Below are positions 1 to 35,771 of a stretch of 64,000 bases of DNA, piece after piece. The position numbers were made by a program, and so were the translations under genes. The notes below the pieces were generated by a model. That model saw nothing but the letters and a program-made list of their open reading frames with translations, was not told the origin of the DNA and ran no database searches. Origin of the DNA: Patescibacteria group bacterium (GTDB taxonomy: Bacteria > Patescibacteriota > Minisyncoccia > Phycocordibacterales > Phycocordibacteraceae); assembly GCA_040388985.1 (NCBI GenBank), contig JAZKAU010000002.1, forward strand, positions 119,642 through 183,641. Reading direction: 5' to 3'. The first letter of the stretch is position 1. Every line of letters begins with the position of its first letter.

Positions 1-429
1 TGGGGCGGGCTGGACTTGCGCTGCGGCGACTTGCATGACCGGTACTTCGACCGGCGTTGGCGCGCTTGCAGGCGGAGCTTTAGGAGCAGCTTGCGGCTCG
101 CGAAGCTCCTGCTCGCGAAGCCTCTTGAATACCTGCTCGTTCACGTCATTCGTGAGTCCCTGAACTGTGTCCGTACCGATTCCGGCATTTCGTAAGTCCT
201 GTACGAATTCGTCCGGAGTATCTACCCCAAGCAGCATGTATACGTAGGCGCGTTCAAAGGCGGCCGCTTGGTCGGCGTGGAGATTGTATTTCTGAGTCAG
301 CCGGAGTGATACTGCATCGCGTTCGGGACTCGTGAGGAAGTCTCGGACAGGCGCTGGGAGTGCGCCCACAAGGACACTAACTTTCTCCTCGAATGAAAGG
401 TCGTCGATGTTCGGTGAGTCGTCAGGCAT
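1..429 (-). CDS. hypothetical protein, partial (N-terminus in window, runs off the 5' edge); next gene downstream in the operon of 448..5632
   Basis: ATG (rc of cat at 427-429) lies 18 nt after the stop of the upstream gene; the frame stays open for 429 nt to the window edge; not in the ORF track because no stop is present. Confidence 0.35.
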   Translation of the reverse strand, partial: MPDDSPNIDDLSFEEKVSVLVGALPAPVRDFLTSPERDAVSLRLTQKYNLHADQAAAFERAYVYMLLGVDTPDEFVQDLRNAGIGTDTVQGLTNDVNEQVFKRLREQELREPQAAPKAPPASAPTPVEVPVMQVAAAQVQPAP

Positions 430-447
430 ACTGGGGATTATTGTACC

Positions 448-2988
448 TTAGTGGGCAGGCGCCGCATGATCTGCAGCATCGTGTGCTTCTTCGTGTGCTT
501 CGTGAAGTTCATGCTCTATGTGCTCGAGCGTGTGTCCAGTATCGTGACCGCTTTCCTTAAGATATTTTAGTATCTTATCGAGGCCTTTCTCGGTAGGGTC
601 TTTCTTGATCTCCTTACTTATCGCGGCGATTGCCTGCCTATTAGCCATAAACGTAGCATTTATAACCCTCTTGAAATGACGGTTATCTACGTTATTGAGA
701 GGAGCGGAAAAAGGACCGCCGAGATTTGCTGCATAGCGTTGCTGCTGCTGCTTCGCATCCATCTGTATACGACCACCTTCGCGAGCGCTCTTTTCTGCCG
801 CCCTAGCTGCAGCAAGCTTATTAGTCTCTTCCGTGAGCTTAGCCTCAGCCGCCGCTTCTTCTTTTTGGCGTTCTTCAAGTATCTTTTCTTGCGCTTCGAG
901 GCTCTTCTTAAGACCTGGAATACCAGGGTTGTTTGTAGCAAGCCTCCGGGCCTCCTCCACTTTCTGTTCCTCTGCCTCTCTGCTGGTAACAGCATCTTGA
1001 TGAGCCGAACTCGCCGCATTTGTCGCTTCCAGTTGCGTGGTGGTCTCTCCAGAGATCTTAGCGATGCGCGCTTCGTAATCCTTCTTGCCCTCCGTACCGC
1101 CCTTCAAGCTCTCTGCGTATTCGGTGCGCGCTTCTTTCGCCTTCTTTACGGAACCCGCGAAGCCACCCTTCTGCGCTCCGCCGAAGTCTATGCCGCCCAG
1201 AGCTTTGCCGCCGGCACCCTTGGCAGCGCCCTGGAACGCCTTAGTTCCGCGCAGGTCGAAGCTAGCCTTTGCCCCCTTGTCTCCGATGAGCGCGAGACGT
1301 CTGCCGGTCTCGGTCGCTCCAAGCCTTGAATTCCGTATGGCTTGCGAGAATGCGGAACCGCCGCGGCCGATGGTCTGCCGGGCACCCCAGGCACTAAGCC
1401 CGAGGGTCGCTCCACCCGTCATCTTGCCGGCCGTGCTTATGGCGAAGCTCGCGCCCGCTGCCCCGAATTTCTTCGCGGCAATGAGCGAGGCCATCATGAA
1501 TCCGGTAACCAGAACGAATATCATGATGATGCCCATGACCGAGGCACCTGGCTGAGTGATGGCAGCAGCGAGGCTCTGCCGGGTATCGGATCCCGCGAAG
1601 CCATCGGTTATCTTAAGGCTCACGAATATGAGCAGTATCAGTATGGGGGCGAAGAACGACTGGTGTAGAAGAGTATTCCACCACTGCTCCCCCATCTTCT
1701 TGAGCGGCGGCACGGCCATGGCAGCGAAGCCTATGGGCGCGAATATCATGAGGAAGGTAAGCGTTATGGCACGTATGGCGAGCATGATGGCAGTCGAGAA
1801 CAGGACTACGGCACCTATGGTCGCAAACAGAGCCATACCCACGAGCGCCGAAGCTTTTATATTCGGGTCGCTATTCTGACTCACCGCGTACATCGAGCTA
1901 AGGCCCGTGGCCTGCATGATATGCCCGGCGATACCGTAGTTCTCGGAACATTGCTCTGCTGTCTGTCCGGCCGTCCCCGATTCAGCGACGTTCCCGCTCG
2001 CTACTCCTGCACACGGGTCCGTATTCGCCTGGCTATAGAAGACGGCGGAGAGCACGTTCGAGCTATCGATGACCGCTTCAGCTGCGAAGAGGCTGAAGTT
2101 CATGAGAATGGCGAAGATGATAAGCCGCGGAAGCGCCTTCTTCGCGGTATAGGTATGCAGATCGAGAATGGTCGCAAGGCCGATGAATATGAATCCGAAG
2201 AGCAGGATCATGTTCCCGATGTCGCGCAGGATGCCCCAGGCGATGAGGAGGCCGGGCGAATTCCCCATGAGGTCCGAGAACTTAAAGACCGTCTTCACCA
2301 CCACCCAGTTGAGCAACGTGCCGGCGATGCCCAGCATGAAGTTCGCTATCTCAAGAATGAGGTAGGCAACAGCACTTATTGCTCGTGAAACGACATCCGA
2401 AGCGGTGCTGATAGCCTGATTCGCCAGCCTCTGACCTGAGCTGACTTCCTCAGCCGGAGCAGCCTCTACGCCAGCTGCGTTGTAGTGATGTATCTGTTGC
2501 GGCGCAGTGAAAAGACCTTGGCTGTAGTAAGTATCATAGCTGCCATCCCCGTGGGTCATTACACAGCTGTAGGCATTCTGGACAGGTGTAAAGGACAGAG
2601 ATACGACTCGGGCTGCCCTACACTTCACCGTGTCTCCCGCGGAAAAGATGGCACCGGCAAAATTTGGAACAGTACCTGCAGCTGTGGCCTTGAAGCCGCA
2701 GGTATATTTAAGTCCGACAAAGCCGAGTCCATTGCCAAAATTATTCGGAAGACAGCTTTCAGCAATATCATCCGGGATGTTGATGCTGGTATAGGTGGCC
2801 GGCTTGCTCCCGGTCCCGGTCCCGCTATCGGGGGTTATGTAATACAGGGCACAGTCCTTTTGTAGGCATGTAGGTGTGGATGCGGTCGATGTTCCTGCCG
2901 CATGCGCCACTGGACCCAAGAAGAAGATGCTTCCGAGCGCGAGAACGCCCAGATACAGGAGCGGAAGATTTTTTAGGGAAATCCGCAT
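448..2988 (-). CDS. large polytopic membrane protein with N-terminal signal peptide, Cys-rich extracytoplasmic domain, ~7 TM helices and a long Gly/Lys/Glu-rich C-terminal tail ending in a His-rich stretch; possibly TrbL/VirB6-like
   Basis: 856-aa ORF. The start is likely at internal ATG (MRISLKNLPLL), 9 nt after the upstream stop; hydrophobic signal followed by AHA; multiple long hydrophobic segments; coiled-coil-like EEQKVEEARRLA C-terminus. Family assignment is by architecture only. Confidence 0.55.
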   Translation of the reverse strand: MRISLKNLPLLYLGVLALGSIFFLGPVAHAAGTSTASTPTCLQKDCALYYITPDSGTGTGSKPATYTSINIPDDIAESCLPNNFGNGLGFVGLKYTCGFKATAAGTVPNFAGAIFSAGDTVKCRAARVVSLSFTPVQNAYSCVMTHGDGSYDTYYSQGLFTAPQQIHHYNAAGVEAAPAEEVSSGQRLANQAISTASDVVSRAISAVAYLILEIANFMLGIAGTLLNWVVVKTVFKFSDLMGNSPGLLIAWGILRDIGNMILLFGFIFIGLATILDLHTYTAKKALPRLIIFAILMNFSLFAAEAVIDSSNVLSAVFYSQANTDPCAGVASGNVAESGTAGQTAEQCSENYGIAGHIMQATGLSSMYAVSQNSDPNIKASALVGMALFATIGAVVLFSTAIMLAIRAITLTFLMIFAPIGFAAMAVPPLKKMGEQWWNTLLHQSFFAPILILLIFVSLKITDGFAGSDTRQSLAAAITQPGASVMGIIMIFVLVTGFMMASLIAAKKFGAAGASFAISTAGKMTGGATLGLSAWGARQTIGRGGSAFSQAIRNSRLGATETGRRLALIGDKGAKASFDLRGTKAFQGAAKGAGGKALGGIDFGGAQKGGFAGSVKKAKEARTEYAESLKGGTEGKKDYEARIAKISGETTTQLEATNAASSAHQDAVTSREAEEQKVEEARRLATNNPGIPGLKKSLEAQEKILEERQKEEAAAEAKLTEETNKLAAARAAEKSAREGGRIQMDAKQQQQRYAANLGGPFSAPLNNVDNRHFKRVINATFMANRQAIAAISKEIKKDPTEKGLDKILKYLKESGHDTGHTLEHIEHELHEAHEEAHDAADHAAPAH

Positions 2989-2996
2989 AGGAGTTC

Positions 2997-4598
2997 TTAT
3001 CCGCCGCTCGTCGCGCACGACTTCTGAAGGTCGACCATCTGGCCATAGAGACTGTCGCTCGAAGCGCTCGATTCGGAGGCAGCTTCCTGCTCATCAGCGT
3101 CGTTGGGGGAAGTTTTCAGGTACCCGTTATATTCGATAGTGATGGCGCTGATAGCGGTAGAGTTGTTTGCGCTCAGTGACGTCTTGGTCGCCTGTATCTC
3201 CGAACTGATCTTGTCGATGGACGCGAGCGCCTGCGTCGCCTTCGAGATTGCCTTTGACGCCCGGTCGCTCGCCGCCGCTATCTCGGGACGTACTCCGCAT
3301 TTCTGTTGCGCCGCTTGCGTTGCGCTCTGTATCTTCTCCCAATCCGCCTCGTACACGACGATGTTCTGTCTATCCAGCGTCAGCTGCTGCAAGATGCCGT
3401 CAGAAAGGCTCGTGTTGAGCGTAGTGTAGTCGCTGCCGTTGGTTGCTTGGCTCAGGTACGATGCTCCTCCCCCTGCCGACGGCTGGGACACGCCTGACAA
3501 GCCGCCGCTTCCAAGTACTTGGTTCACGAGCTGGCCCACAAGCGCGCCGACGATCTCGTTGATGGAGTCGGCTAGTTCGAGCTGACGGATACCCGAGCCA
3601 AGCGCACCTTCGAGCTGACTCTCGATGACGGATCCCGGCGTCTTGATCGAGTTGAACGGACACTTCTCGGTCAGCTTTAGCGAGATCGCGTCCGTCTTCG
3701 AGTTTCCGGTACTTGCCGGACAATCCCCTCTCCACGGCAGGAACCCCTTACCCCAACCGATCTCGTCCTTGCGTTGCTGCGCCGCCTGATCTATCTGCGC
3801 CCAGAGCTGATTGCTCGCGAGCTTATAGGCGCCGAACGGGTTGTTCGCCGGGTTCTGAGTCGCGGAGAAGAACGCGTTGAAACCGCCCTTAGAGAAGTCT
3901 CCTCCTTGCACGAAGGCCTTAGGATCCTGACTCTGCTGACCGAGCGTATAGTTGAGTCCCCAGCTCCCGGTCGTGCGATAGTATTCTGCTCTCAGCTGTT
4001 GGTTTATCTGGTCCTGGAACGGGGACGTGAGATTAAAGCCGGTCTGTTTCTGCACTTCCGTATTCAAGTGAGTGAAGAAATCGTCTGCGACCGCGTCCCC
4101 AAGATTTTGCAGGTTAGCCTTCAGATCGCTCACGAAGGCAGGAGAGCCTTGGAAGCCGGAATTTATCCAGTTGACGGTGCTACGCGTTATCGATTGAACG
4201 GCAACCTTGGCAACGCTCCAAGCTATCGCATCGAGCGAGCATTTTATAGTATTTTGATATGAGGTATTGGCTGCAACGGTAGTATTGGCGGCTAGGTTCG
4301 CGGTTTCAATGAGGCCTAGCGCCGCATCATGCACAGGGAAGCCGCTGGCTACTCCCGCAGCGTCTACTGCTGTTCCGCCTGCCGCTCCTCCCACCGCAGC
4401 TCCGCCTCCAATCAATGCAGATAAACCGCAAACCGCAGCTGACCCGGCAGCTTGGGCTGCTGAGTCACTTATCACGTTCCCTCCTCCCCCTGTCTGCGCA
4501 TGCGCCGTAAGCGGCTGGTACGCGAATATCGAAGAAATCAAAAGAGTCGCCGCTAAGAACGCACCCAGCTGATGTCGTATATGCGTAGTCATGGTCAT
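2997..4598 (-). CDS. secreted Gly/Ala/Ser/Asn/Gln-rich protein (cleavable signal peptide ...TAHA|QT), unknown function
   Basis: 533-aa ORF; overlaps the upstream gene by 4 nt (operon); N-terminal signal peptide; low-complexity G/A-rich N-terminal region. Confidence 0.55.
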   Translation of the reverse strand: MTMTTHIRHQLGAFLAATLLISSIFAYQPLTAHAQTGGGGNVISDSAAQAAGSAAVCGLSALIGGGAAVGGAAGGTAVDAAGVASGFPVHDAALGLIETANLAANTTVAANTSYQNTIKCSLDAIAWSVAKVAVQSITRSTVNWINSGFQGSPAFVSDLKANLQNLGDAVADDFFTHLNTEVQKQTGFNLTSPFQDQINQQLRAEYYRTTGSWGLNYTLGQQSQDPKAFVQGGDFSKGGFNAFFSATQNPANNPFGAYKLASNQLWAQIDQAAQQRKDEIGWGKGFLPWRGDCPASTGNSKTDAISLKLTEKCPFNSIKTPGSVIESQLEGALGSGIRQLELADSINEIVGALVGQLVNQVLGSGGLSGVSQPSAGGGASYLSQATNGSDYTTLNTSLSDGILQQLTLDRQNIVVYEADWEKIQSATQAAQQKCGVRPEIAAASDRASKAISKATQALASIDKISSEIQATKTSLSANNSTAISAITIEYNGYLKTSPNDADEQEAASESSASSDSLYGQMVDLQKSCATSGG

Positions 4599-5599
4599 GA
4601 GTTCTGCAGGCGTGCCAGTCCGATGAGTAGGTACCCAGGCTCGCCTTCCTGCGGTTCGCCCCCTACCAGGATCACGTTTGCGAGAGAGCTTAGGGCTGCA
4701 GAGAATGATCCTGCCGAACCGGTATAGGTCGATAGTGCGCCCATAGTCGCAAGCGGATCTTTCTCATAGTCGCTGACTATCCTCGTCGCTTTCGCGAGTT
4801 CATCCAAAGAACGTACAAGTTTCACGTGTGAATCTACGAGCGATGGCGGTACCTGCGCGTCCCGCAGATCCTGCGCCATGGCCGCATATGCGTTCGATAC
4901 CTTCACGAGTTTCGAAGCCGCGCTCTTGTCATTTTCTTCGATGACCTTCCCTATGAGTAATAACGGATTTCCTCCGTCATCTTTAATATCGTGCGCTCCC
5001 AGAGTACTTTCTACGGTAGCTGCATATTGCAAAACGGAAGTGGAAGTATTGGTATGCACCGAAACCGAAGCATAGGTCGAGGACAGTGCTTCCCCGGCTT
5101 TGGCGCTGAACTCGCCTAGTAGTTTTGTGACAAGCGCTTGTTGCGCTTCCTCAGTCATTGGCTGCCCATTGCTTGCCGCGACATATTCCTTGAGGAATTC
5201 TTTGGAGAATTCGTCCGTGATGCTGCCTGGAGCAGCTGCAGTAACAGGAATATCGGCGTCCGTGAGAGTAGTCGTTCCCTGCTGGTCTGACGGAAGCTGT
5301 GAGGCGAGGGCATTCGGAGTCAGCAAGCCTCTACGGGCTGCGTCTCCGTCGGATATGCCGTCGCCGTCAGTATCTGCCTTGTTAGGATCGGTTCCATAGA
5401 GGGCCTCCTGCCAGTCAGGAAGACCGTCCCCGTCTGTGTCTTTCGAGGCATACGCCTTCAAAAGTGCATCGGTCGACTCAGCACTCGCGGTCTTGCTTGA
5501 AAGGAAGGAAGGACCTGACAGGACATAGGAGGCCGCAACGAATAAGAGCGCCAATAGAGATGCACCACCAATGCGAAGCGTACGTTCAGAAAGTCTCAT
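4595..5599 (-). CDS. membrane-anchored protein with thrombospondin type-3-like calcium-binding repeats (DTDGDGLPD / DTDGDGISDGD)
   Basis: 345-aa ORF whose M1 is a TTG. The internal ATG (MRLSERTL...) gives an N-terminal hydrophobic anchor; repeated DxDGDG motifs. Confidence 0.5.
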   Translation of the reverse strand: MRLSERTLRIGGASLLALLFVAASYVLSGPSFLSSKTASAESTDALLKAYASKDTDGDGLPDWQEALYGTDPNKADTDGDGISDGDAARRGLLTPNALASQLPSDQQGTTTLTDADIPVTAAAPGSITDEFSKEFLKEYVAASNGQPMTEEAQQALVTKLLGEFSAKAGEALSSTYASVSVHTNTSTSVLQYAATVESTLGAHDIKDDGGNPLLLIGKVIEENDKSAASKLVKVSNAYAAMAQDLRDAQVPPSLVDSHVKLVRSLDELAKATRIVSDYEKDPLATMGALSTYTGSAGSFSAALSSLANVILVGGEPQEGEPGYLLIGLARLQNS

Positions 5600-5665
5600 A
5601 AAAGCTAAAGAAATAGTAGCATGAACGCACAATTAAGACGGAATACCCTATATAGGATATGTGCA

Positions 5666-6460
5666 TTACTTTCTGAGCTTTCGAGCCGTATGTGCGAGCC
5701 TCTTCCAGGACGCCAAATCCACATCCTCCGATCGCGCGTCAGGCATCACCCCTGCCTCTTGGAGGAGCGTTTTCGCTGCCTCGCCAGATACGAGCGCTTC
5801 GAGATTCTTCGCTAAGCGCTTGCGCTTATGCGCGAAGCCCGCCTTAAGCACCTCGAAGAAGGCTTCTTCGTCTGCAAGGCTTTCAAAGCAGTCGCCACGA
5901 ATGTCTTGTATGGAGAGTACTGCAGAGTCGACGTTCGGCGCGGGGCGGAAGGCTCCGCGCGGAACTGTAAAGGCGTATGTGGGCGTACCGTACGCCTTTA
6001 CCGAAAGCGAGAGGATGCTCTCTTTCCCGCGCGACCGCGCGACACGCTCGGCAACCTCCTTCTGTACCAGGACCGTCATCGAATACGGTTTGTGAGGAGC
6101 GGTGAGGAACATGCGCATGATCTCCCCGGTTATGTAGTACGGGATATTCGCGACAAGGCCATAGGAGCCTGTAATACGAGCGGGATCGAAGGTACGGATG
6201 TCCGCATGGACAAGCTCAAGCCTTCCCTTTTCGATCTCATCCGCGAATGTTTCGGCAAGCTCGGGGATCAGTTGATCGTCCGCTTCGACCGCGATTACTC
6301 GTGCCGCCTTCGCCAGTAGCGCACGGGTGAGCATACCGGTCCCGGGACCTATCTCGAGCACCGTCGCGTTCTCTGGAAGATTCGCAACCATAACGATGCG
6401 CTCCGCGATCCTCGGGTGCATGAGAAAGTTCTGTCCGAGTGATTTCTTAGGATGTCCCAT
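5666..6460 (-). CDS. rsmA: 16S rRNA (adenine1518/1519-N6)-dimethyltransferase RsmA/KsgA
   Basis: N-terminal KKSLGQNFL motif; SAM-binding LEIGPGTG; 264 aa. Confidence 0.92.
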   Translation of the reverse strand: MGHPKKSLGQNFLMHPRIAERIVMVANLPENATVLEIGPGTGMLTRALLAKAARVIAVEADDQLIPELAETFADEIEKGRLELVHADIRTFDPARITGSYGLVANIPYYITGEIMRMFLTAPHKPYSMTVLVQKEVAERVARSRGKESILSLSVKAYGTPTYAFTVPRGAFRPAPNVDSAVLSIQDIRGDCFESLADEEAFFEVLKAGFAHKRKRLAKNLEALVSGEAAKTLLQEAGVMPDARSEDVDLASWKRLAHTARKLRK

Positions 6461-6589
6461 GTCTCTTGAGTGTGCTCAAAAATCCCTCAGATGCAAGGCG
6501 CGAGAAGTTCGACGAATGAGCCGTACTCCGCCGTACGGTGAAGAGGAGAACTGAGCGGCAACGCAGCAGATGAGGATTTTGGAGTATAC

Positions 6590-8566
6590 TCACGCCTCGA
6601 TGATGTTCTCCGCGCCGTATTCATCCGCTTCGTCGTATTCGATAAGGAGCGGATCGATGTCTCGCAGGAACGATGACGGTTCGGAAAGGTAGTCCGTACC
6701 GTAAATGCGACGGATGCGCGCGAGCGTAAGGATAAGTCGCTTCTTGGCGCGCGTCACCGCGACATAGAAGAGACGGCGTTCTTCTTCCTCGTCCCGATTC
6801 TCGTCCGAAGCATTGCCCATGCCTTCGTGCGGGAAGAGACCTTCCTCAAGTCCGGTCACGAACACCGTATCGAACTCCAGCCCCTTAGCCGCATGCACGG
6901 TCATGAGCGTCACGCCCTTCTTCTTCTCACCGCTTTCGGTCGGGCGATCCATCTCGTCCTGGTCTCCGGCGAGCGCTGCTTCTGCAAGGAATGCGCTCAG
7001 GCCTTCGAGTCCCGGCTGTCCGTCATGCCGGCTCGCGAGCGTACCGAGCTCTTTCGCGTTCTCGAGCCGTTCCTGTCCGTCCTCGCCTTCCTTTAGGAGT
7101 GCACTTTCAAGTCCGCTGCGCTCGATCACGAGCTTCACGAACTCGGAAGGCACGAGCGTCTGCGCCGCTTCCTGCAGTCCTCCCAAAAGCGCCTCAAAGC
7201 TATCTATCTTGGCCCTGTCGCTCGCGCGAAGCTCGTCCCGTTTGCCGGCCAGGAGCTTCCCGAGCGTCACCTTCCCGATGCCGCGCGGCGGCGACTGGAC
7301 CGCGCGCATGCGATCAACTTCCCGGCTCGGATCAAGCGCGAGCCGTATCCACGCCAGTACGTCTTTCACCTCCTTCCGATCGAAGAAGCGGGTGCCGAGG
7401 AGTCGATACGGAATGCCCGCGTGTAGGAACGCTTCCTCAAGCGCACGCGATTGGAAATTCGTTCGGAAAAGCACCGCGATCTCTTCGGCTCTCGTACCTC
7501 TGTCGAGCGCACGCGCCGCTTCGCGTGCTACCCACCGCGCTTCCGCCTCCGCATTTGTCGCCGGATGTATCTTGATCCGTTCGCCGTCCGGGTTATCGGT
7601 GACCGCATGCTTGTCCTTGCGATTGCGATTCTTCTCGATTATTTCGTTTGCTGCGCTCACGATGGTCTGCGTGGAACGGTAATTATGTTCGAGCACGATG
7701 TGCTTCGCGTTCTCGTACGTCTCTTCGAACTTTAGGAGGTTGTCGATAGTCGCTCCGCGCCAGGTATATATCGACTGATCGATATCGCCCACGACGAAGA
7801 GGTTACGCCTGTCTCCGGCGATAAGGTGCGCGAGCTTCCCCTGGAGTTCATTCGTGTCTTGGAACTCGTCGACATGCAGATGGCTGAAGCGCTCCTGCAC
7901 GCGAGCGCGCACCTCTTCGTGCTCCTGGAGGAGCCGCACGGGCAGCACGATGAGGTCGTCGAAGTCGAGCGACTTCTCGCGCTTCAAGGTCTCCTCATAG
8001 CGTATCCACGCTTCAGCGACGATGCGCGAACGGAAACTCTCTCGTCCGTGCTTCTCGCGGAACTGCTGGAGCGTCTGCCCTTCCCCTTTGGCCCTCGAGA
8101 TGCGGCCGAGTATCGCGCTCGGCGGCACTTCCTTCGGATCGACGTCGAGCGCCTTGAGCGCTTCGCGTATCGCGCTCTTCGAGTCGTCGCGATCGTAGAT
8201 AGTGAAGTGACGCGGAATGTCCATCACGCTGCCGTAGGTCTGCAGAAGTTCCCGGCCCAGCCCATGGAACGTAGCCACGAACGGAAGACCGTATGCGCCC
8301 GGCCTGCGGTCGCGTCCTGATTCGACCTTGAGCAATATCTGGAGACGTTCGCGCATCTCGCGCGCTGCCTTGTTCGTGAAGGTCACGGCGAGGATGCTCC
8401 CTGCAGGTATTCCCTGCCGTATGAGGTGATAGATGCGGGTGGTAAGCACCGAGGTCTTTCCTGACCCCGCTCCTGCGAGGACGGACACTGGTCCGTCGAC
8501 GGCGAGTACCGCTTCCTTCTGAGCCGGATTAAGGTGCGAAATATACTCAGGAGGAGATGAGGACAT
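6590..8566 (-). CDS. pcrA: ATP-dependent DNA helicase PcrA/UvrD family
   Basis: LNPAQKEAV...AGAGSGKTSVLTTR Walker A and UvrD motifs. The long ORF begins at 8755, but the helicase N-terminus aligns to the internal ATG at 8566 (MSSSPPEYISHLNPAQ). Confidence 0.9.
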   Translation of the reverse strand: MSSSPPEYISHLNPAQKEAVLAVDGPVSVLAGAGSGKTSVLTTRIYHLIRQGIPAGSILAVTFTNKAAREMRERLQILLKVESGRDRRPGAYGLPFVATFHGLGRELLQTYGSVMDIPRHFTIYDRDDSKSAIREALKALDVDPKEVPPSAILGRISRAKGEGQTLQQFREKHGRESFRSRIVAEAWIRYEETLKREKSLDFDDLIVLPVRLLQEHEEVRARVQERFSHLHVDEFQDTNELQGKLAHLIAGDRRNLFVVGDIDQSIYTWRGATIDNLLKFEETYENAKHIVLEHNYRSTQTIVSAANEIIEKNRNRKDKHAVTDNPDGERIKIHPATNAEAEARWVAREAARALDRGTRAEEIAVLFRTNFQSRALEEAFLHAGIPYRLLGTRFFDRKEVKDVLAWIRLALDPSREVDRMRAVQSPPRGIGKVTLGKLLAGKRDELRASDRAKIDSFEALLGGLQEAAQTLVPSEFVKLVIERSGLESALLKEGEDGQERLENAKELGTLASRHDGQPGLEGLSAFLAEAALAGDQDEMDRPTESGEKKKGVTLMTVHAAKGLEFDTVFVTGLEEGLFPHEGMGNASDENRDEEEERRLFYVAVTRAKKRLILTLARIRRIYGTDYLSEPSSFLRDIDPLLIEYDEADEYGAENIIEA

Positions 8567-8703
8567 ATGCTGACTATACAAGAGCGTCTGAGGTATTGGA
8601 ACGTGCGCGGCGCACGAGCCAGCACGCGAGCGCACTTGCGAATGTATAAAAGTCGAACTCCGAGAAACGATCACGTCCCTCGGAGCCCAATCCCTGATGC
8701 TGG

Positions 8704-9078
8704 CTAACTCCAGTCGCCCTCGACGTCCCGGCACGTGTGCCAGGCGAAACCGCACACCAGCAGATGCCAGCCTAGGAACACAGCGTCGAACGCCAGGGCG
8801 ACCGAATCATGGCGCGGATCGAGGGACGCAATGGTGACGAAGGTGGAAAGCGTGAATCCCAGCAGTCCGAGCCACGCGTGTTCACCGATCTCGTCATGCG
8901 TGCCGATTTGGCGAAGCCGGTGGCTTAGATAGAGGGACGGCACGAAGAGAACGAGCGCCGACCCGATAAGATACAGGGTCACGGCAGTTCTCCCAGTTGT
9001 TTTGCCATTATATTCATACAACGAATATGGACAGTCAGTCAATAATCGGGTCTTCATACGTTCTCCACACTTCATCAA
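8704..9078 (-). CDS. small hypothetical membrane protein
   Basis: 124-aa ORF with two hydrophobic helices; the start is uncertain. Confidence 0.3.
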   Translation of the reverse strand: MMKCGERMKTRLLTDCPYSLYEYNGKTTGRTAVTLYLIGSALVLFVPSLYLSHRLRQIGTHDEIGEHAWLGLLGFTLSTFVTIASLDPRHDSVALAFDAVFLGWHLLVCGFAWHTCRDVEGDWS

Positions 9079-9239
9079 TTGTCAAGAATTGACCCGCATC
9101 CTGGCCACGCTATACTTGCCAGGTTGATTGATACGACCGTACTCAAGAAATGGCCTAGGTAAGCCATTTTTGTATTCTGAAGATTGTCTGAAGAACCCTC
9201 ACCCTGTTTATTTTAAAGACCCCGAATCCTTCCCGCCAC

Positions 9240-10382
9240 ATGCCTTCGGGCACACGCAGGAACGCATATAAGGCTCTAGCGGTTGCCGGCTCATCGGCGC
9301 TTCTCCTGGGTACGATTTCGCTCCTCTCTCCCTCGACGCTCGGGGCATTTTTTCCGTTCGCTATCACGCACGCAGCTGATGGCGATACTCCGCTCCTCCA
9401 TGACCCGTCTCTCAACCTGCTCGAGGCTGCAATAAATTCTGATCCTAATCCGACCAAGGGCGACACGCTCCTTTCCCTCTCCGAAGGTTCGGCACTCATG
9501 AATACCTCAGGCCCTGACGGAACCATTCCTGCGGGTACGGCAGCCGAGAATCCTTCCGTAGGAGCCATTTCCGTATATACCGTCAAGAACGGCGACTCTA
9601 TCTCGGGCATCGCTGATCACTTCGGCGTTTCCGTGAACACCATCCTCTGGGCGAACGACCTCACTACCAAGAGCACCATCAAGCCTGGCATGTCGCTCGT
9701 GATCCTGCCGGTCTCGGGCACTCGTCATACGGTAGCCGAAGGAGAAACCCTTTCATCGATTGCCACGAAATTTCATGCCTCTACAAGCGAGATCGCAACT
9801 TTCAACGGTCTTGATACCGATGCGACCGTCGTCGTAGGTTCGACCCTGATCATTCCAGGAGGTGAAGCGGCGAATACTACTGCTCCTGCGCCTGCCAAGA
9901 AGAGCAGTGCAGCATCAAAGCCCGCTGCGACATCTGCGAAGAAGACGACAAGCAAGAGCACGACGAAGACTGGCAAGGACATCGGGGCAGCGTCCGCCGG
10001 TAGCGGCTACTACGAGAATCCTGTTCCTGGCGCGATCCTCTACCAGGGAATACACGGCAATAACGGCGTCGACCTTTCCGCACCGAGCGGCACACCGATA
10101 CATGCAGCAGCAGATGGCACCGTCATCATCTCGAAGGCCGACGGCGGATGGAATGGCGGTTATGGCTCCTATGTCGTCGTAAGCCATGCCAACGGCACGC
10201 AGACTCTGTATGCCCACATGAGCAAGGACATCGCGACCGTAGGCGAGACCGTCTCGAAGGGCGAACTTCTGGGCTACGTAGGCGAGACCGGCGAGGCTAC
10301 CGGCAATCACCTCCACTTCGAGGTCCGCGGCGCGAAGAATCCGTTCGGCTACTCGTGCACGCTGATGAAGAAGTGCTACTAG
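9240..10382 (+). CDS. LysM-domain M23 family peptidase (peptidoglycan hydrolase)
   Basis: N-terminal anchor, two LysM repeats (NGDSISGIADHFGVSVNTILWAN; GETLSSIATKFHASTSEIATFNGL), Ala/Ser/Lys-rich linker, M23 motifs (HxxxD...HLHFEVR). Confidence 0.85.
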   Translation: MPSGTRRNAYKALAVAGSSALLLGTISLLSPSTLGAFFPFAITHAADGDTPLLHDPSLNLLEAAINSDPNPTKGDTLLSLSEGSALMNTSGPDGTIPAGTAAENPSVGAISVYTVKNGDSISGIADHFGVSVNTILWANDLTTKSTIKPGMSLVILPVSGTRHTVAEGETLSSIATKFHASTSEIATFNGLDTDATVVVGSTLIIPGGEAANTTAPAPAKKSSAASKPAATSAKKTTSKSTTKTGKDIGAASAGSGYYENPVPGAILYQGIHGNNGVDLSAPSGTPIHAAADGTVIISKADGGWNGGYGSYVVVSHANGTQTLYAHMSKDIATVGETVSKGELLGYVGETGEATGNHLHFEVRGAKNPFGYSCTLMKKCY

Positions 10383-10399
10383 AGGTTCTCGAGGTTCTT

Positions 10400-11167
10400 T
10401 TAGTGCAATTCTCTCCCCATTTCCCTGCTCCACTTCTCACGAATCGCACCAAGGTCGTTGTAGTATCCGTGATCAAATCCAGGCATGGGTTTGTATATTT
10501 TTATTTCAGACCACAAGGTCGCTTTTTCTAGGTACGGTATAGAGCGTGCAACAAGTTCTCGCGTTGAAAGCCAGTAGCGCTCGTCTGCAAATGGCCGTAG
10601 CGATCGTTCCTTATCTGTAGCAACCGTGCTGACTTCAAAGAATACGGAATGCACCAGGCCGTCCGAATTCTCTGCAAATATCCGCATACGTTCCCGCAGC
10701 TTAAGCTTTGCGCGTGAATAAGACCGCCAGTACTTAATGTCGTATGGATCGCTCAGAGAGCCGAAGGCGCACGCCGTGATTGGTATCGGTCGGCGTTCCT
10801 TATTAACGCAAGCAAGTAAAGGAAAGAAGACGTTCTCGAACGTTTTAATATTAGACGCGAGAATCTCGTCATCAATACCATCCTCGTCCTTATCCCATTC
10901 AGGAATCCCCTCAGCTTCGAATTTAAACATCCCCACCGGATGGATGAAAATTATTTCACCCACCTCCTTTAATGAGATTTCTCTAATGCTTACCTCAACT
11001 GCTTTCGTTTCGAGCAGGTCGACAATAATGTCGTCCGGTCTTGTCGATTCCATCGCTCTACGTGAGATCCCGATACACTTCGTTTTGGGTTTCTTGCTGA
11101 AGTAATCCATATACGCGCGCCCGAGCGTGCCACTTGCGCCTGACACGATGACCAGTTTATTTTTCAT
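10400..11167 (-). CDS. NAD(P)-binding Rossmann-fold protein, atypical SDR-like
   Basis: N-terminal VSGASGTLG glycine motif; 255 aa; divergently transcribed from the wHTH gene at 11263. Confidence 0.45.
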   Translation of the reverse strand: MKNKLVIVSGASGTLGRAYMDYFSKKPKTKCIGISRRAMESTRPDDIIVDLLETKAVEVSIREISLKEVGEIIFIHPVGMFKFEAEGIPEWDKDEDGIDDEILASNIKTFENVFFPLLACVNKERRPIPITACAFGSLSDPYDIKYWRSYSRAKLKLRERMRIFAENSDGLVHSVFFEVSTVATDKERSLRPFADERYWLSTRELVARSIPYLEKATLWSEIKIYKPMPGFDHGYYNDLGAIREKWSREMGRELH

Positions 11168-11262
11168 TCCGCGAGCGTATCGCAGATATTTGACTTACTA
11201 AAATAAATGTTGCATTCAGTACAATAAGTAAAATATATTTTTACTTCTGCTATGCTAGATAA

Positions 11263-12087
11263 ATGGATATATTGAAGCCGAAGAGTATAGAAGAAATGGT
11301 CATCTCCCTTCTACGGCAAGGACCCCTATCGAATGCTGAACTTCTGGCGAGCGTCCGAATCCAACGCGGCGTACTTACGAAACAAGGATTCTACGCAGCA
11401 CTTCGAAAGCTTAAGAAAGAGGAAATCGTAGTCGTATATAAAAAAATCACCGCACTTAATGCAAGTTGGATAGAGCGCATGCAGCGATTGGTCGAGACCA
11501 TGCGTGACTCTTATGTCGGGAGCGACCAGGCCCGCATCACTGACTTGGCAGATCGTGAAAGTGTTTCGTATGTATTCCTGAACATTCGCCACCTTGATGT
11601 CTTCTGGGGTCACGCCCAGAATCTGCTCATAAGTGCTGCCCCGAAGGGAGCCGCCCTGCTTGCTTACGACCCGCACTACTGGTTCTATATCGCGCGCAAA
11701 GAGACAGAACAGGAACTCTTGAAGCAAGTCGTATCAAGCGGACGCCAGTTTCTCATGACGGTCGGCGGCAATACGAAGCTCGATCGCTCCATCAAGGCAG
11801 ATTTTAAAACGGATATGCAGCAATACCACATTAATCGTGCATTTGAACGGAATACATACTATGTAACTGTCATTGGAGACTTCATATTAGAAGTGTATCT
11901 AGATGCTTCGGTTGCGCGGACAGTCGAAGATATTTACGCGCTAGGCTCTGTAGACGCCGAAACCAAACTTGTGGATCTGCTTACAAGACGCAGCAGAAAC
12001 CGATTACGCATATCCAGGAATTATGCTCGGGCGGAGCAGATACGGACACGTCTCAGCAAACACTTTTATATAAAGAACGAGGCTTAG
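11263..12087 (+). CDS. winged-helix protein, paralog family 2 (member A); putative transcriptional regulator
   Basis: 274 aa; shares motifs with 37959..38783 (HLD.FW, YDPHYWFY/YNPHNFWAY, GDFILEV/GDFIITV); N-terminal wHTH-like segment. Confidence 0.5.
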   Translation: MDILKPKSIEEMVISLLRQGPLSNAELLASVRIQRGVLTKQGFYAALRKLKKEEIVVVYKKITALNASWIERMQRLVETMRDSYVGSDQARITDLADRESVSYVFLNIRHLDVFWGHAQNLLISAAPKGAALLAYDPHYWFYIARKETEQELLKQVVSSGRQFLMTVGGNTKLDRSIKADFKTDMQQYHINRAFERNTYYVTVIGDFILEVYLDASVARTVEDIYALGSVDAETKLVDLLTRRSRNRLRISRNYARAEQIRTRLSKHFYIKNEA

Positions 12088-13665
12088 TCACTCGAATCCG
12101 AACAACCCACGCGGACGATACTGGAGCGCTTCAAGTATGTGTGGAGCTTCCACGCTGTCGGAGTCCGCGAGGTCGGCGATGGTGCGAGCGACACGCATGG
12201 TCCGGTGATAGCTGCGCGGCGAGAGATTGAGCTTCTTGGCAGATGCAAGTAGGGCGGCATTGGCCTCACTCGTGAAGTAAGACTGTTCTTCAAGCTCGCG
12301 CGAGGTAAGGCGTCCGTTCACCGCATCGTCTCGTTCCAAGCGCCGCGCCATCCGACTACGCGCCGCCTCTACCCGCGCCCGTACTATCTCTGACGGCTCG
12401 CCTTCCCCGAGACTCGCTAATGTCTCGTGCGGAATGTGCGCGACCTCGACCCAGAGGTCGAGACGGTCCGCGATGGGGCGTGATATCTTCTTCGCCTGCT
12501 TCAACGCCTGACGCACGGCGACTTCCGCATCTGCTGAAAGCGTTTCTGCCGGATTCATCGCGGCGACGAGCATGAAGTCGGCGGGGAATACTATCGTCGC
12601 CTTCGTTCTCGCCACGGTGACCATGCGGTCCTCAAGCGGCTGACGCAGCGCCTCAAGCGCGCGTGCGTCGAACTCCGCGAACTCGTCCAGGAAGAGTACT
12701 CCATAATGGGCGAGCGTCACTTCGCCCGCGCGCGGATAGGCTCCACCGCCCACGATGGCGGTGTGCGAGACCGTGTGATGCGGCGCACGGAAGGGCGGCC
12801 AGCGGAGCAGGCCGCCCGCAGGAAGTGCACCTGCCGTCGAATGTATGGCGGTTACCTCAAGGAGCTCGTTCTCCGAAAGTGCCGGGAGTATTCCCGGGAG
12901 TGCGCGAGCGAGCATGGTCTTGCCGGTACCGGGAGGGCCATAGAGGACGAGATTATGCCGACCCGCGGCCGCTATCTCAAGCGCGCGCTTGGCACCTTCC
13001 TGTCCCTTCACATCCCTGAGGTCGATTGCCGGAGGACGCACATCTGGCAGTGGCGAGCGTTCTGCGGCCACGAGCTTCTTCTTACCGCTGATGTGTTCGA
13101 CTATCTGCCGCAGACTTTCAGCCGCATAGATCTGTACGCCCGGTACGAGAAGCGCTTCGAAGGCGTTAGCAGACGGCACGAATACGTCAGCGATACCTTC
13201 TTGCTTCGCTCGTATGACTTGTGCGACCGCGCCGCGCACGCTGCGGAGCGTTCCATCGAGCCCGAGCTCACCCGTGTAGAGCGCGGGAGTCTCCGGAAGA
13301 GTGATATCTCCGGCTGCAGCCAAGTAAGCGAGCGCCAGCGGCAGGTCATAGTGAGAGCCTTCCTTCTTGAGGTCAGCCGGAGAGAGCGAGAGGATGATGC
13401 GTTTATTCGTGGCCTTCGGCGACTTGAAACCGGCGTGGCGTATGGCGCTTGAAATACGGTCTCGAGCTTCTTCCACCGCCTTGTCCGGCAACCCCACGAC
13501 CGAGAACGCATGCAGGCCGCGCGATAGATCAGCTTCGATGGTCACAAGCTCAGCGCCAGCGCCCACTGGTTGCGCAGCGAAGACGCGAGCATAGCCGCCT
13601 TTCTCCTTATTTTTCTTATCGGTTTCTTCGACACCTCCCATACCTCCATTTTCCAGAACAAGCAC
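12088..13665 (-). CDS. comM: YifB/ComM family Mg-chelatase-like AAA+ ATPase
   Basis: N-terminal Lon-like domain, Walker A GPPGTGKT, ChlI-type AAA module, C-terminal Mg-chelatase domain. The start may be GTG at 13665 or ATG at 13641. Confidence 0.85.
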
Positions 13666-13715
13666 CCTCGAAGTGTCTTAGTAGACTGTGGAAATCACAG
13701 AATATACTTTATAAA

Positions 13716-13753
13716 AAATACATCGAGTCCTCTTTAGAGGACTCGATGTATTT
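13716..13753. terminator. perfect 17-bp stem hairpin flanked by A-tract and T-tract (bidirectional intrinsic terminator-like)
   Basis: aaatacatcgagtcctc-ttta-gaggactcgatgtattt; downstream of the minus-strand membrane-protein gene and upstream of the comM start. Confidence 0.6.
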
Positions 13754-13769
13754 TCGTTTGAACCGATAC

Positions 13770-14435
13770 TTAACTTGCAGCAACTATTTCCGGTTCCTTA
13801 TATTCCCGAGAAAGCACGCGATACGCATGCACGACGGCAAGAGCTGAGACGGGCAAGGTTACCAGAAGCCCTACGATAAGCGCGATGAAGCCGACGATAT
13901 TTATACCCACAAGCGCAAGTCCGAGTAAGAACATCCGCCAACGATTCCCTTTCGTGATCGCGCGGCTGCGCTTGAGCGCGTCTACAGGGCCGAGACCGTC
14001 CTCGATAACGCCATAAAGCGCAAAGCCGAACATGATGCCAAGGATGATACCCGGGACGATGAGCAGAATGAAGCCTATGAGCAGGATTACCGTGAGAAGG
14101 ATAGACGTCCCAACGAACTTCAAGTATGGAGATGGGTGCCACAGAGTGCGTACTGAGACGTCGGACACCACGTCATGCGCTTTCAGGAAGAAGGAAATCT
14201 TTCCCATGCTTACGAGGAACGTGAGTGCCATACCGGCTATCGCTGAGATGATCGCAACGACGGTCGACTCCGGTCCGAGCACGTATGCTCCGCCGACTTG
14301 CAGCATCGACTGGAATCCGCTTATGAGCATGTTGACGAGCAGGAGAAGTACGCCGACGCCGATGAATATCCACGGGCGAGTCTTGAAGGTGTTCCATCCA
14401 GACGTCAGGCACTCTTTTACCGAGAGGGTGTACAT
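13770..14435 (-). CDS. polytopic membrane protein of unknown function
   Basis: 221 aa with 5-6 hydrophobic helices; ATG lies 4 nt after the dksA-like stop (operon). Confidence 0.5.
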   Translation of the reverse strand: MYTLSVKECLTSGWNTFKTRPWIFIGVGVLLLLVNMLISGFQSMLQVGGAYVLGPESTVVAIISAIAGMALTFLVSMGKISFFLKAHDVVSDVSVRTLWHPSPYLKFVGTSILLTVILLIGFILLIVPGIILGIMFGFALYGVIEDGLGPVDALKRSRAITKGNRWRMFLLGLALVGINIVGFIALIVGLLVTLPVSALAVVHAYRVLSREYKEPEIVAAS

Positions 14436-14439
14436 ATGA

Positions 14440-14832
14440 TTATCCGTTCATATGCGCCTTGCAGGTCTTTGCTGACGGGTCGGCGTTCAGCCGATCTTCC
14501 TCGATGGCTTCGCCCGACACTGCGCATATGCCGTAAGTGCCCTTTTCAATGCGTTCAAGCGCAGCGAGGACGTCGTTGTAGCGTATCTCGAGCTCCTTGA
14601 GTATCGCCGTATTATCGCCGAAATGCTCTATGAGGTCGGCACGATCGTTGGGGTCCGCCTCGAGCCCGGTTTCCTGAGGCACTGGTTCCCAATCGTTCGG
14701 GTTCGACGGATTACGCCTTCCTACGCTCTCAAGCTCGGTCTCAAGGACCTTCTTTTCGTCTTCAAGCCGCCCTTTGTATATGCTGGTGTCGTTCATGACT
14801 GAAACTGTAGCATGGCCCTGCCCTGCCAGCAC
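14440..14832 (-). CDS. dksA: DksA/TraR family transcription factor with degenerate (2-Cys) zinc finger
   Basis: N-terminal coiled coil, C-terminal C-x(n)-RL-A-P-A-x-C motif with only two Cys; 130 aa. Confidence 0.65.
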   Translation of the reverse strand: MLAGQGHATVSVMNDTSIYKGRLEDEKKVLETELESVGRRNPSNPNDWEPVPQETGLEADPNDRADLIEHFGDNTAILKELEIRYNDVLAALERIEKGTYGICAVSGEAIEEDRLNADPSAKTCKAHMNG

Positions 14833-33037: not shown

Positions 33038-34006
33038 TTACTCGGTTAGGCTCTTGAAGAAAGCCGGGCCTCCACCCCAGATCGGTCCACCAGAACACTG
33101 AACGGCCGCAGCACCTGCTTCCAAGTAGTCAGATACGTCTTGAGTGGTAAGCACGCCCCCACAACCAATGATATCGACCGCAAGGTCGTGAGCCCTTAAG
33201 AATCTTATAGTCTTGAGATTCCCGGCCTTAAGAGCTCGCCCCGAGAGTCCTGCGCTCCTACTGACCGTTCCATCAGCTCTTTTAATCTGGATTTCTGTAC
33301 CGCGGACGACTTGCGGAAGGCCGTTTGAGACGATAACGGCTGAGATAATCTCGGAGTATTCTTTCAATAGTTTTTGCAATTCATCCATAAAGGTCTCGGT
33401 AACAGTAGGGCAGTCACTAAAATCATAAGACGGATACTCAGCACCAAGCTGTGTGAGATCATTACTGGTTAGATACGGGGATAGCTTGAACCAGAGGGGT
33501 TTGGTAACTGACAGTTTCTTGATCTCGATAAATAGCTCCCTCAATGAATGAATTGAGTACGCAAGCGGCGCATGTCCCATAGTCGGACAGCTGCAATTTA
33601 TTTCGATTGCGCCTACTCGTGATACATTCTGATGCGTTGCGATAGCTTTAAGAGAACGAAGATATTCATCCGTGCTATATCCCGCAATGCTGATGACTAT
33701 CGGCTTCGGAGAGTTGGGTGGAAGGTTATCCATTGTATCGATAATGCCCAAATTGCGCATGCCATTAGCATGCAGCCCTCCCTCGGCGAAGAACGTTTGG
33801 TAAGCGCCATGCACTCCCGGCCAATTCAGCACGCCGGCATTCCCCGTACGCTCATTAGGAGTGATAGAACCGATGGTCACTGCTCCTACTACGTCTACGA
33901 TATTAAGATAATCCTTAATATCTGGTGAGAGGGGAGACTTTACTACGCCTCCACCCAGGAAGACAGGGGAGCTAACGCTTAGGCCTCCCACGCGGTATCT
34001 TTTCAT
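33038..34006 (-). CDS. dihydroorotate dehydrogenase-like FMN-dependent oxidoreductase (class 1 DHOD/DHPD family)
   Basis: TIM-barrel DHOD motifs (VGAIEINCSCPTMGH; IIGCGGVLTTQDVSDYLEAGAAAVQ); the ORF N-terminus to 34108 is over-extended, so the start is at MKRYRVGG. Confidence 0.7.
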   Translation of the reverse strand: MKRYRVGGLSVSSPVFLGGGVVKSPLSPDIKDYLNIVDVVGAVTIGSITPNERTGNAGVLNWPGVHGAYQTFFAEGGLHANGMRNLGIIDTMDNLPPNSPKPIVISIAGYSTDEYLRSLKAIATHQNVSRVGAIEINCSCPTMGHAPLAYSIHSLRELFIEIKKLSVTKPLWFKLSPYLTSNDLTQLGAEYPSYDFSDCPTVTETFMDELQKLLKEYSEIISAVIVSNGLPQVVRGTEIQIKRADGTVSRSAGLSGRALKAGNLKTIRFLRAHDLAVDIIGCGGVLTTQDVSDYLEAGAAAVQCSGGPIWGGGPAFFKSLTE

Positions 34007-34111
34007 TGACATAAGTATAATAGATTGCATAAATACATACAAAAATGTATACAGATTATCAAAAAATATGATTTTACTGTTATAATATATAGTATTAATG
34101 TTGTTCAAGTT

Positions 34112-34852
34112 ATGGACAGAAATATAAAGATACTGGAAGAATTTGGACTTTCTGAAGAAGAGGCGCAGGTATATCTGGCTGGCCTCTCCCTTGGGCCCAC
34201 TACTATTCTCAAATTAGCTAAGACGGCTGAGGTCCAGCGGACTTCTGTGTACCGAGTAGTCGAATCGCTGCGCCAACACGGTCTGATGAAAACCGAGCTC
34301 AAGGGCTTGAAGAAGCTTTACGCGGTTGAAAGTCCACATAACCTGAAACGGGTCCTCGAGGAGAAGGTGGAGCAAATGAACGATATCCTTCCCGGATTGC
34401 TATCGATTTATAAGAAGCAAGGTAAGGATACGCTGATTAAATATCACGAGGGGATAGAGAGCGTTAAGAGCGTATACGAATCTCTTTTGCGTGAGAATCG
34501 TAGCGGAGAGCCATATTATGTCATCTCCTCTCATCAAGAATGGTACAAGCTGGATGAAAAATGGTTTGAAGATTTTTCTGAACGTAGAAACCGAGAGCAT
34601 TTCGACTTCAGATTTTTCCTTCTTGATTCTGAACCAGCGCGCTTGCTTAAGGAGCGAGAGGAAGCTCTAGGTATAAAGGTAAAGATATTACCTTCTAGCC
34701 TTGATTTCACTTCGATACTTATCCTGACAAAGGATAAGATTTACATTCATAACTTCGAACCGCCGATCGAAGGCCTGGTGATCGAGAACCAGGACATGAT
34801 CACCATGATGCTGCAGGTATTTAAAATAATGTGGGAAGCAATCCCCGAGTAG
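34112..34852 (+). CDS. TrmB-family winged-helix transcriptional regulator, paralog 4
   Basis: ILEEFGLSEEEAQVYLAGLSLGPTTILKLAKTAEVQRTSVYRVVESLRQHGLM; C-terminal LQVFKIMW; the ORF N-terminal extension was rejected. Confidence 0.7.
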   Translation: MDRNIKILEEFGLSEEEAQVYLAGLSLGPTTILKLAKTAEVQRTSVYRVVESLRQHGLMKTELKGLKKLYAVESPHNLKRVLEEKVEQMNDILPGLLSIYKKQGKDTLIKYHEGIESVKSVYESLLRENRSGEPYYVISSHQEWYKLDEKWFEDFSERRNREHFDFRFFLLDSEPARLLKEREEALGIKVKILPSSLDFTSILILTKDKIYIHNFEPPIEGLVIENQDMITMMLQVFKIMWEAIPE

Positions 34853-34861
34853 CTAAGTCAA

Positions 34862-35581: not shown

Positions 35582-35771
35582 CCATATACAGTATGCCTAT
35601 ATGAATAAATGTCAAAAATAATGAATCTTTTATCTATATAACTTAATAAGATGGCTCATTACATAGCTAATAAAACAGAATATTTGAATATTTTGTCAAT
35701 AAATAATAAGGTCACCGCAGAAGGGAAGGCAGCCTCTTCAACGACTCGATTCGCTGTTTGGGAGAGAAACG

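Follow-up and report, generated by a model that had tools for sequence, protein, structure and literature searches.

The first 5632 nucleotides (nt) of a 64,000-nt stretch of DNA from a Patescibacteria group bacterium (GenBank assembly GCA_040388985.1, contig JAZKAU010000002.1, forward-strand positions 119,642 to 183,641; the whole stretch is called the window here) hold a cluster of genes that probably forms part of a chromosomal type IV secretion system (T4SS). A first-pass annotation of the sequence had described a minus-strand operon of four or more genes at this place, and three complete open reading frames (ORFs) and one that crosses the window start are indeed present. In window numbering, and in the order in which the minus strand is read, they are as follows (aa, amino acids):

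4595-5632 from TTG (345 aa) or 4595-5599 from ATG (334 aa), minus strand: gene 1, a protein with thrombospondin type-3 (TSP3) motifs
2997-4598, minus strand: gene 2, a 533-aa protein
448-3018 from GTG (856 aa) or 448-2988 from ATG (846 aa), minus strand: gene 3, a VirB6-like polytopic protein
1-429, minus strand, with its ATG at 429: gene 4, a 304-aa protein, of which the first 143 of 304 codons lie inside the window

The genes are packed as tightly as had been described. Measured on the sequence, the first two genes overlap by 4 nt (ATGA), 8 nt separate the end of the 533-aa gene from the VirB6-like gene, and the last gap is 18 nt long. These are not chance ORFs: the best relatives reach E=1e-180 for the 846-aa protein and 7e-164 for the 533-aa protein. 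The partial frame at 1-429, suspected of being a gene that runs off the window edge, is real. It is complete, at 304 aa, on L004 (14170-15084), a Logan assembly contig that encodes an identical 533-aa protein, is 100% identical to window positions 1-14598 and extends 3058 nt further. In a promoter and terminator scan of window positions 1-9500, the sites found were no more numerous than in shuffled sequence.

On L004, the VirB6-like gene is followed by the 304-aa gene, a gene encoding a 139-aa PrgI/VirB3-like protein, a gene encoding a 210-aa TrsD-like protein, and a gene encoding a VirB4 ATPase. The 139-aa protein passes the cut-off of the PrgI family model (PF12666), with E=1.2e-10. VirB4 models align with the 210-aa protein through their N-terminal parts (E=4e-9 and 2e-8), and TrsD matches it at E=1e-3; all of these scores fall under the curated cut-offs, and, judged by these matches, the protein is a free-standing piece resembling the VirB4 N-terminus. 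The VirB4 gene is cut by the contig end and gives a P-loop_TraG match at E=2.8e-12; its complete orthologue in the related locus L002 matches the NCBIfam model conju_CD1110, of the Gram-positive type, at E=2e-113 (380 bits, cut-off 325). The VirB4-like ATPase that the first-pass annotation proposed to look for elsewhere in the genome is accordingly found in the same organism, as the third gene past the window edge. In relatives, the cluster contains further genes, encoding a 133-aa protein, a 337-aa secreted beta-sandwich protein, a VirB2-like pilin and a 403-aa membrane-anchored protein. The pilin of L002, at 236 aa, matches T4SS_pilin (PF18895) with 26.9 bits against a cut-off of 26.6. This same pilin (L002 17627-18337) has a Cys-rich C-terminal extension of about 100 residues after its two pilin helices, unlike the short canonical VirB2.

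The VirB6-like protein begins with a signal peptide, followed by a beta-rich ectodomain (residues ~95-170) with 6 Cys, and 6 Cys fall within the first 200 residues. Hydropathy and the secondary structure of an AlphaFold2 (AF2) model place about seven hydrophobic helices between residues ~200 and 505, where VirB6/TrbL family members have at least five transmembrane helices, and the predicted local distance difference test (pLDDT) score in the membrane core of the model is 80-94. Among the helices lies an 80-aa loop that is poor in Lys and Arg and has two conserved Cys. The remainder of the protein is a charged coiled-coil C-terminal region of about 330 aa with a His-rich end (9 His in the last 45 residues). 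The signal peptide, the roughly seven helices, the coiled coil and the His-rich tail had all been listed for this protein before and stand; its description as Cys-rich is too strong, six Cys being a modest number. The tail (window 448-600, minus strand) occurs in two kinds across relatives. One is His-rich and ends in His, with about 15 of 63 relatives carrying at least 4 His; the other ends in a '...G..YW[S/V/R/I]' motif.

A possible likeness to VirB6/TrbL had been suggested for this protein, and it is supported at the level of the family. The relative P0009, which is 51% identical to the window protein, matches Pfam TrbL with 28.5 bits (cut-off 25.9), and 9 of 26 family cores match TrbL at E<=0.1, the best at 2e-7; no other family recurs. 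Five of six further relatives give TrbL matches that are sub-threshold (E 0.002-0.09) and cover nearly the full profile. Many relatives also bear the precomputed Pfam label PF19590. A profile of the core has no meaningful match among PDB sequences, and the full-length profile matches only coiled-coil and low-complexity proteins there, via the tail. The gene is encoded together with VirB3 and VirB4 in the same organism, with PrgI two genes and VirB4 four genes downstream. Transitive homology and gene context thus support placing the protein in the VirB6/TrbL family, as a member that is both divergent and extended.

The 533-aa protein has a signal-peptide-like N-terminal segment ending AHA/Q, and its composition is 10% G, 14% A, 11% S, 8% Q and 5% N. 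It had been introduced as a secreted, low-complexity protein rich in G, A, N and Q. The signal peptide is there; low complexity is an overstatement, as only a Gly/Ala-rich insert of some 50 residues (~35-85) has that character and the remainder belongs to a well-conserved family. The conserved core has two conserved Cys pairs and is accompanied by a C-terminal helical bundle. In the AF2 model (mean pLDDT 66.5), which is all-helical, residues 390-532 score above 95, and the N-terminal half is of low confidence. A Foldseek search of this model against the PDB returned generic helical bundles only, with an R388 stalk entry at rank 27 (E=1.0, probability 0.25). No match was found in Pfam or NCBIfam, including the VirB5, TrbJ and DUF4141 models, the family profile has no meaningful match among PDB sequences, and tblastn of one family member against plasmids found none. 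A word-indexed search returned 345 relatives, and an exhaustive search returned 5084 representative clusters (50% identity) at E<=1e-3. The family is thus very large and has no Pfam or NCBIfam model.

The position of this gene raises the question of VirB5. Matches to DUF4141, which we take to be the family of CTnDOT TraI, occur in 5 of 62 relatives of the 533-aa protein (best 30.8 bits, cut-off 30), as do matches to NCBIfam TrbJ (E~1e-5). CTnDOT TraI was treated as a VirB5 homologue by Guglielmini et al. 2014 (PMC4027160). The matches are confined to the first ~50-90 residues and vanish (E>1) when the signal peptide is removed. Because the TrbJ matches depend on the signal peptide, the statement that the 533-aa protein is a VirB5 or TrbJ fails, and this identity was rejected. 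Comparison by hhalign of the 533-aa and VirB6-like families with a single pTiC58 TrbJ and TrbL, respectively, gave nothing in both cases, and is without power because TrbL, which Pfam supports, was missed as well. A homologue search with TrbJ gave nothing but close copies of it (85-94% identity), of no use for a diverse profile.

A further lead comes from the mature N-terminus. Of 257 family members, about 8%, belonging to several subgroups, have three hydrophobic residues followed by DPTNLVQN there. This resembles the mature start of Agrobacterium tumefaciens VirB5, 'QFVVSDPATEAETL'; the window protein has only a degenerate version, 'FPVHDAALGLIETANL'. The order of a gene for a secreted helical protein followed by a VirB6-like gene parallels virB5-virB6 on pTiC58, where trbJ and trbL also stand in this order with the small trbK gene between them. 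Given its place upstream of the VirB6-like gene, its secretion signal and the DPTNLVQN-type start in its family, the 533-aa protein might be a VirB5-like subunit, much enlarged, that forms a stalk or tip and docks on the VirB6-like platform, a suggestion that we consider rather unlikely. If it were true, this protein and the VirB2-like pilin would give a single-membrane T4SS with a genuine VirB2/VirB5-type fibre, and the fibre tip would be a fast-evolving host-recognition protein.

For gene 1, the ATG at 5599 (334 aa) is favoured over the TTG at 5632 by the public gene call and by the alignment of relatives. Hydropathy predicts a single N-terminal hydrophobic anchor helix (residues 10-28), and the protein matches Pfam TSP3_bac (PF18884) at E=3.5e-9 (36.8 bits, cut-off 25). 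The motif, of the DxDxDGxxDxxE type, reads DTDGDGLPDWQE in the window protein and is followed by DTDGDGISDGD; in the first motif, residues D54, D56, D58, L60, D62, W63 and E65 are invariant in 21 orthologues. The match and the helix agree with the TSP3-repeat anchored protein proposed earlier, and the protein is, on these predictions, membrane-anchored with a putative calcium-binding thrombospondin type-3 motif. The C-terminal ~230 aa form a helical domain without a recognised fold, and the family profile has no match among PDB sequences.

The 304-aa protein has neither a hydrophobic segment nor a signal peptide in a hydropathy scan, and no match in Pfam or NCBIfam. As it lacks a membrane segment, it is presumably cytoplasmic. 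A conserved N-terminal domain of about 105 aa is followed by a Pro/Ala/Gln-rich linker of very variable length, and 64 of 70 orthologues carry DPYRE among their last 14 residues. The arrangement suggests a flexible tether bearing a short docking motif.

Conservation was followed in 80 loci, one genome per species, with genes found by local phmmer. All are metagenome-assembled genomes, and their labels, a few of which are clearly wrong, place them in Patescibacteria, Paceibacterota, Parcubacteria or Kaiserbacteria. The genes that were detected always come in one order: (ComM), LysM-M23 (on the opposite strand), UvrD, RsmA, TSP3, 533-aa, VirB6-like, 304-aa, PrgI, TrsD, VirB4, (133 aa), 337-aa, VirB2-like pilin, 403-aa, YidC (on the opposite strand) and DnaA. 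Conservation of the operon in relatives, on which the first-pass annotation had made its proposal depend, is therefore seen in 80 species-level genomes. Matches to the VirB6-like protein are found in all 80 loci, to the 533-aa protein in 76, to the TSP3 protein in 73, to the 304-aa protein in 70 and to VirB4 in 59; the figures for the surrounding genes are 70 for RsmA, 64 for LysM-M23, 49 for the pilin, 48 for YidC, 29 for DnaA and 30 for comM within 10 kb. Many of the misses are contig ends. In at least 59 of the 80 loci, the four-gene module and PrgI-TrsD-VirB4 form one uninterrupted row on the same strand, with short gaps between genes. Gene content, gene order and the homologies of VirB3, VirB4, TrsD and the VirB6 family are direct observations.

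Rates of change differ strongly along the cluster. Median identity across species is 33% for the TSP3 protein, 35% for the 304-aa protein and 38% for both the 533-aa and VirB6-like proteins, compared with 63% for PrgI, 69% for TrsD, 84% for VirB4 and 67% for UvrD. No other part of the cluster evolves as fast as the four genes, whose rate is two to three times that of the ATPase module. At the other extreme, VirB4 (L005-L084, at about 14-16 kb in most loci) is extraordinarily conserved, with a median identity of 84% and phmmer scores above 1100 bits, and is more conserved than UvrD, RsmA and ComM at the same loci.

We read window positions 1-5632 as the upstream, envelope-facing half of a chromosomal, Patescibacteria-type T4SS locus in a Paceibacteria (Parcubacteria) genome, with a probability of roughly 0.85. 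The system is already in the literature (PMC12102498, PMC10633639), and the identification is correct but ordinary. The survey by Quinonero-Coronel et al. 2025 (PMC12102498) describes a VirB4 clade that is specific to Patescibacteria and akin to the MPF-FATA class of monoderms, with TrsD, PrgI/VirB3, VirB6 and VirB2-like pilins near virB4 and almost no relaxases. According to the same survey, the Paceibacteria locus lies next to dnaA and ksgA, KsgA is abundant near virB4, VirB1-type matches carry M23/LysM domains, VirB1 homologues accompany virB4 mainly in Paceibacteria, and a PrgH profile found only 12 of 480 Patescibacteria VirB6 homologues. The locus described here shares the chromosomal setting, the MPF-FATA-related VirB4, the separate TrsD, PrgI/VirB3, VirB6 and (in relatives) the VirB2-like pilin, as well as the placement by dnaA and ksgA, the nearby LysM/M23 hydrolase and the lack of a nearby relaxase in what was a weak test. 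There is no essential difference, and the locus is a member of this clade. The available parts of these surveys (PMC12102498, PMC10633639) report no adhesins, no VirB5 homologue and no TSP3 repeats. The three unannotated genes of the window may already be catalogued elsewhere in them.

Several observations weigh against this assignment. The window protein itself does not match Pfam TrbL (PF04610) significantly (E=0.28, 11.4 bits, cut-off 25.9), a sub-threshold match that covers profile positions 26-212 of 215, and it has no match in NCBIfam or among PDB sequences. In a Foldseek search against the PDB, R388 VirB5/VirB6 stalk entries appear four times in the top 20, none of them significant (E 0.4-1.9), with the matched chain (VirB6 or VirB5) unspecified. 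By hydropathy alone, the in/out assignment of the central loop is conflicting. About nine Kaiserbacteria-like loci in which the sequence continues for ~10 kb downstream have no PrgI-TrsD-VirB4 after the module, so that physical linkage is not universal and the module might act without VirB4. Lastly, any function given to the Paceibacteria T4SS is extrapolated by analogy from a single Saccharibacteria species. The Kaiserbacteria-like loci concerned include L053, L071, L072, L074, L078, L079, L081 and L082.

A rival reading is that the four genes encode an independent cell-surface or adhesion complex, placed beside the T4SS by a conserved gene order near the replication origin and not working with VirB4. 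The module is intact in the loci just named, and in L078 it is followed by genes for EF-G, EF-Tu, L3, L4 and L2, that is, by ribosomal and elongation-factor genes in place of PrgI-TrsD-VirB4; that the four genes stay together without an adjacent VirB4 means that they behave as a unit. The genes uvrD, rsmA, yidC and dnaA are equally syntenic, so synteny alone is no proof of shared function, and the module evolves much faster than VirB4, TrsD and PrgI. Against this, the sole recurrent family signal of the polytopic protein is TrbL/VirB6, a dedicated T4SS component, and the contiguous, co-oriented arrangement with PrgI-TrsD-VirB4 prevails in the sample. Fast-evolving, envelope-exposed parts beside a conserved ATPase are, moreover, normal for secretion systems. 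A separate adhesion complex therefore seems improbable, and assignment of the module to the T4SS is preferred.

The wider surroundings of the cluster in the window include the following genes:

5666-6460, minus strand: rsmA/ksgA (16S rRNA dimethyltransferase; Pfam RrnaAD on an identical public gene call), directly upstream of the cluster and outside the machine
9240-10382, plus strand: a LysM-LysM-Peptidase_M23 cell-wall hydrolase (two Pfam LysM domains and Peptidase_M23 on an identical public gene call)
12088-13665, minus strand: ComM, 5-7 genes upstream of the cluster
50570-52315, plus strand: a PilB-type ATPase
60145-61671, plus strand: ComEC

The position and orientation of the LysM-M23 gene are kept in 64 of the 80 loci. 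Its product is a candidate VirB1-like wall-opening enzyme, which may be linked to the system. The first-pass annotation had drawn on pilB, comEC, comM and the LysM-M23 peptidase as neighbours; all four are present, but pilB and comEC, at a distance of 45-60 kb, do not belong to the cluster. Two ORFs without a Pfam match (255 aa on the minus strand and 274 aa on the plus strand) lie between the LysM-M23 gene and comM (window 10400-12087). The related loci L001 and L002 have neither of them at this place, which points to a small lineage-specific insertion. Elsewhere in the window, at 34000-36000, the guanine-plus-cytosine (GC) content falls to 0.42, compared with ~0.49-0.59 in other parts, and the dip holds two divergent TrmB-family regulator genes (34025-34852, plus strand; 34862-35581, minus strand).

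Neighbours such as ComM also bear on whether the apparatus handles DNA, as a conjugative or integrative element or as a ComB-like uptake machine working with ComM and ComEC. The earlier proposal of a cell-surface or DNA-transfer/attachment apparatus is supported in that the locus is assigned to a T4SS; its DNA-transfer part is not supported, given that no relaxase or coupling protein was seen nearby in a weak test and that the literature argues for a role other than conjugation. The window gave no phmmer match to pTi TraG, TraA or VirB4, and the 80 loci, including flanks of 10 kb on either side, gave none to TraG or TraA, both being weak single-sequence tests. Overall, these same tests, with no search aimed specifically at integrases, gave no sign of a relaxase, a coupling protein or an integrase, either in the window or in the regions flanking the 80 loci. 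The GC content of the cluster (0.54-0.57) is the same as that of its neighbours. The fixed site between housekeeping genes in 80 species and the absence of a GC deviation argue against a mobile element, and an integrative-conjugative element was rejected on the basis of this context and the undetected relaxase and coupling protein. On this reading, the T4SS locus is vertically inherited and is not part of a mobile element.

A DNA-handling role is very unlikely, even though comM lies within 10 kb in 30 of the 80 loci, comEC and pilB share the window, this type of VirB4 is otherwise found on Gram-positive conjugative elements, and DNA import by a T4SS that has no coupling protein is exemplified by the Helicobacter pylori ComB system (PMC12857230): in Saccharibacteria, deletion of comEC abolishes competence but leaves the cells viable, in contrast to the T4SS, which they cannot do without (PMC12857230, citing Wang 2023), and most Patescibacteria T4SS loci lack relaxases according to PMC12102498.

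Among characterized systems, the closest points of comparison to this T4SS are the Gram-positive conjugative ones (pCF10 Prg, pIP501 Tra and CTn2/CD1110). Shared features are the CD1110-type VirB4 (in the orthologue), the PrgI-family VirB3, a polytopic VirB6 analogue (PrgH in those systems), a cell-wall hydrolase and the lack of an outer-membrane core (VirB7, VirB9 and VirB10). Unlike them, the system described here has VirB4 split into TrsD-like and ATPase genes, a VirB2-type pilin, and a VirB6-like family that matches the TrbL/VirB6 model; its locus is fixed in the chromosome and not on a mobile element, and no relaxase, coupling protein or PrgB-type adhesin was seen, the test being weak for the first two. 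The extended VirB6 proteins of Gram-negative systems (TrbL of the P-type and TrwI of R388) resemble the window protein in combining a polytopic core of at least five helices with large extra hydrophilic domains, and the virB5-virB6 and trbJ-trbK-trbL arrangements likewise put this gene after one for a secreted helical protein. Sequence similarity to them is at the limit of detection. In contrast to Gram-negative VirB6, the window protein has an N-terminal Cys-containing beta ectodomain, a cytoplasmic coiled coil of about 330 aa and a His-rich end, and the envelope in which it operates has a single membrane.

Solved T4SSs and the literature suggest, by analogy, a tentative mechanism. VirB4, tethered at the membrane by VirB3/PrgI and helped by the TrsD-like piece, would power assembly and transport, and the VirB6-like protein would serve as a membrane channel, translocon or assembly platform. 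Its Cys-containing ectodomain may, together with the 533-aa and TSP3 proteins, build a wall-spanning or surface-exposed part that possibly nucleates or caps a VirB2-type fibre, while its cytoplasmic coiled coil and the 304-aa protein could connect to the ATPase or to substrates or cargo. The LysM-M23 hydrolase may open the wall. The roles suggested for the TSP3, 533-aa and 304-aa proteins are, like the biological function of the whole, inferred. For the Saccharibacteria counterpart, Wang et al. 2023 (PMC10633639) report that the system (SEML1_0006-0019 in Southlakia epibionticum) is essential for epibiotic growth by transposon sequencing and has no recognisable coupling protein or relaxase, and a 2025 review speculates that the pilus acts as a conduit to the host (PMC12857230). 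Extending this analogy to Paceibacteria, the role is most likely host-cell contact or exchange, and not conjugation.

The Patescibacteria T4SS is a leading candidate for the host interaction of these ultra-small, metabolically dependent bacteria. To our knowledge, no other T4SS has been shown to be essential to the cell that carries it, and here this was shown in one Saccharibacteria species. The window adds no new kind of system. What it pins down for Paceibacteria is a VirB6-centred envelope module of four genes, which are conserved together in 70-76 of 80 species-level genomes and are obvious candidates for host-specificity determinants.

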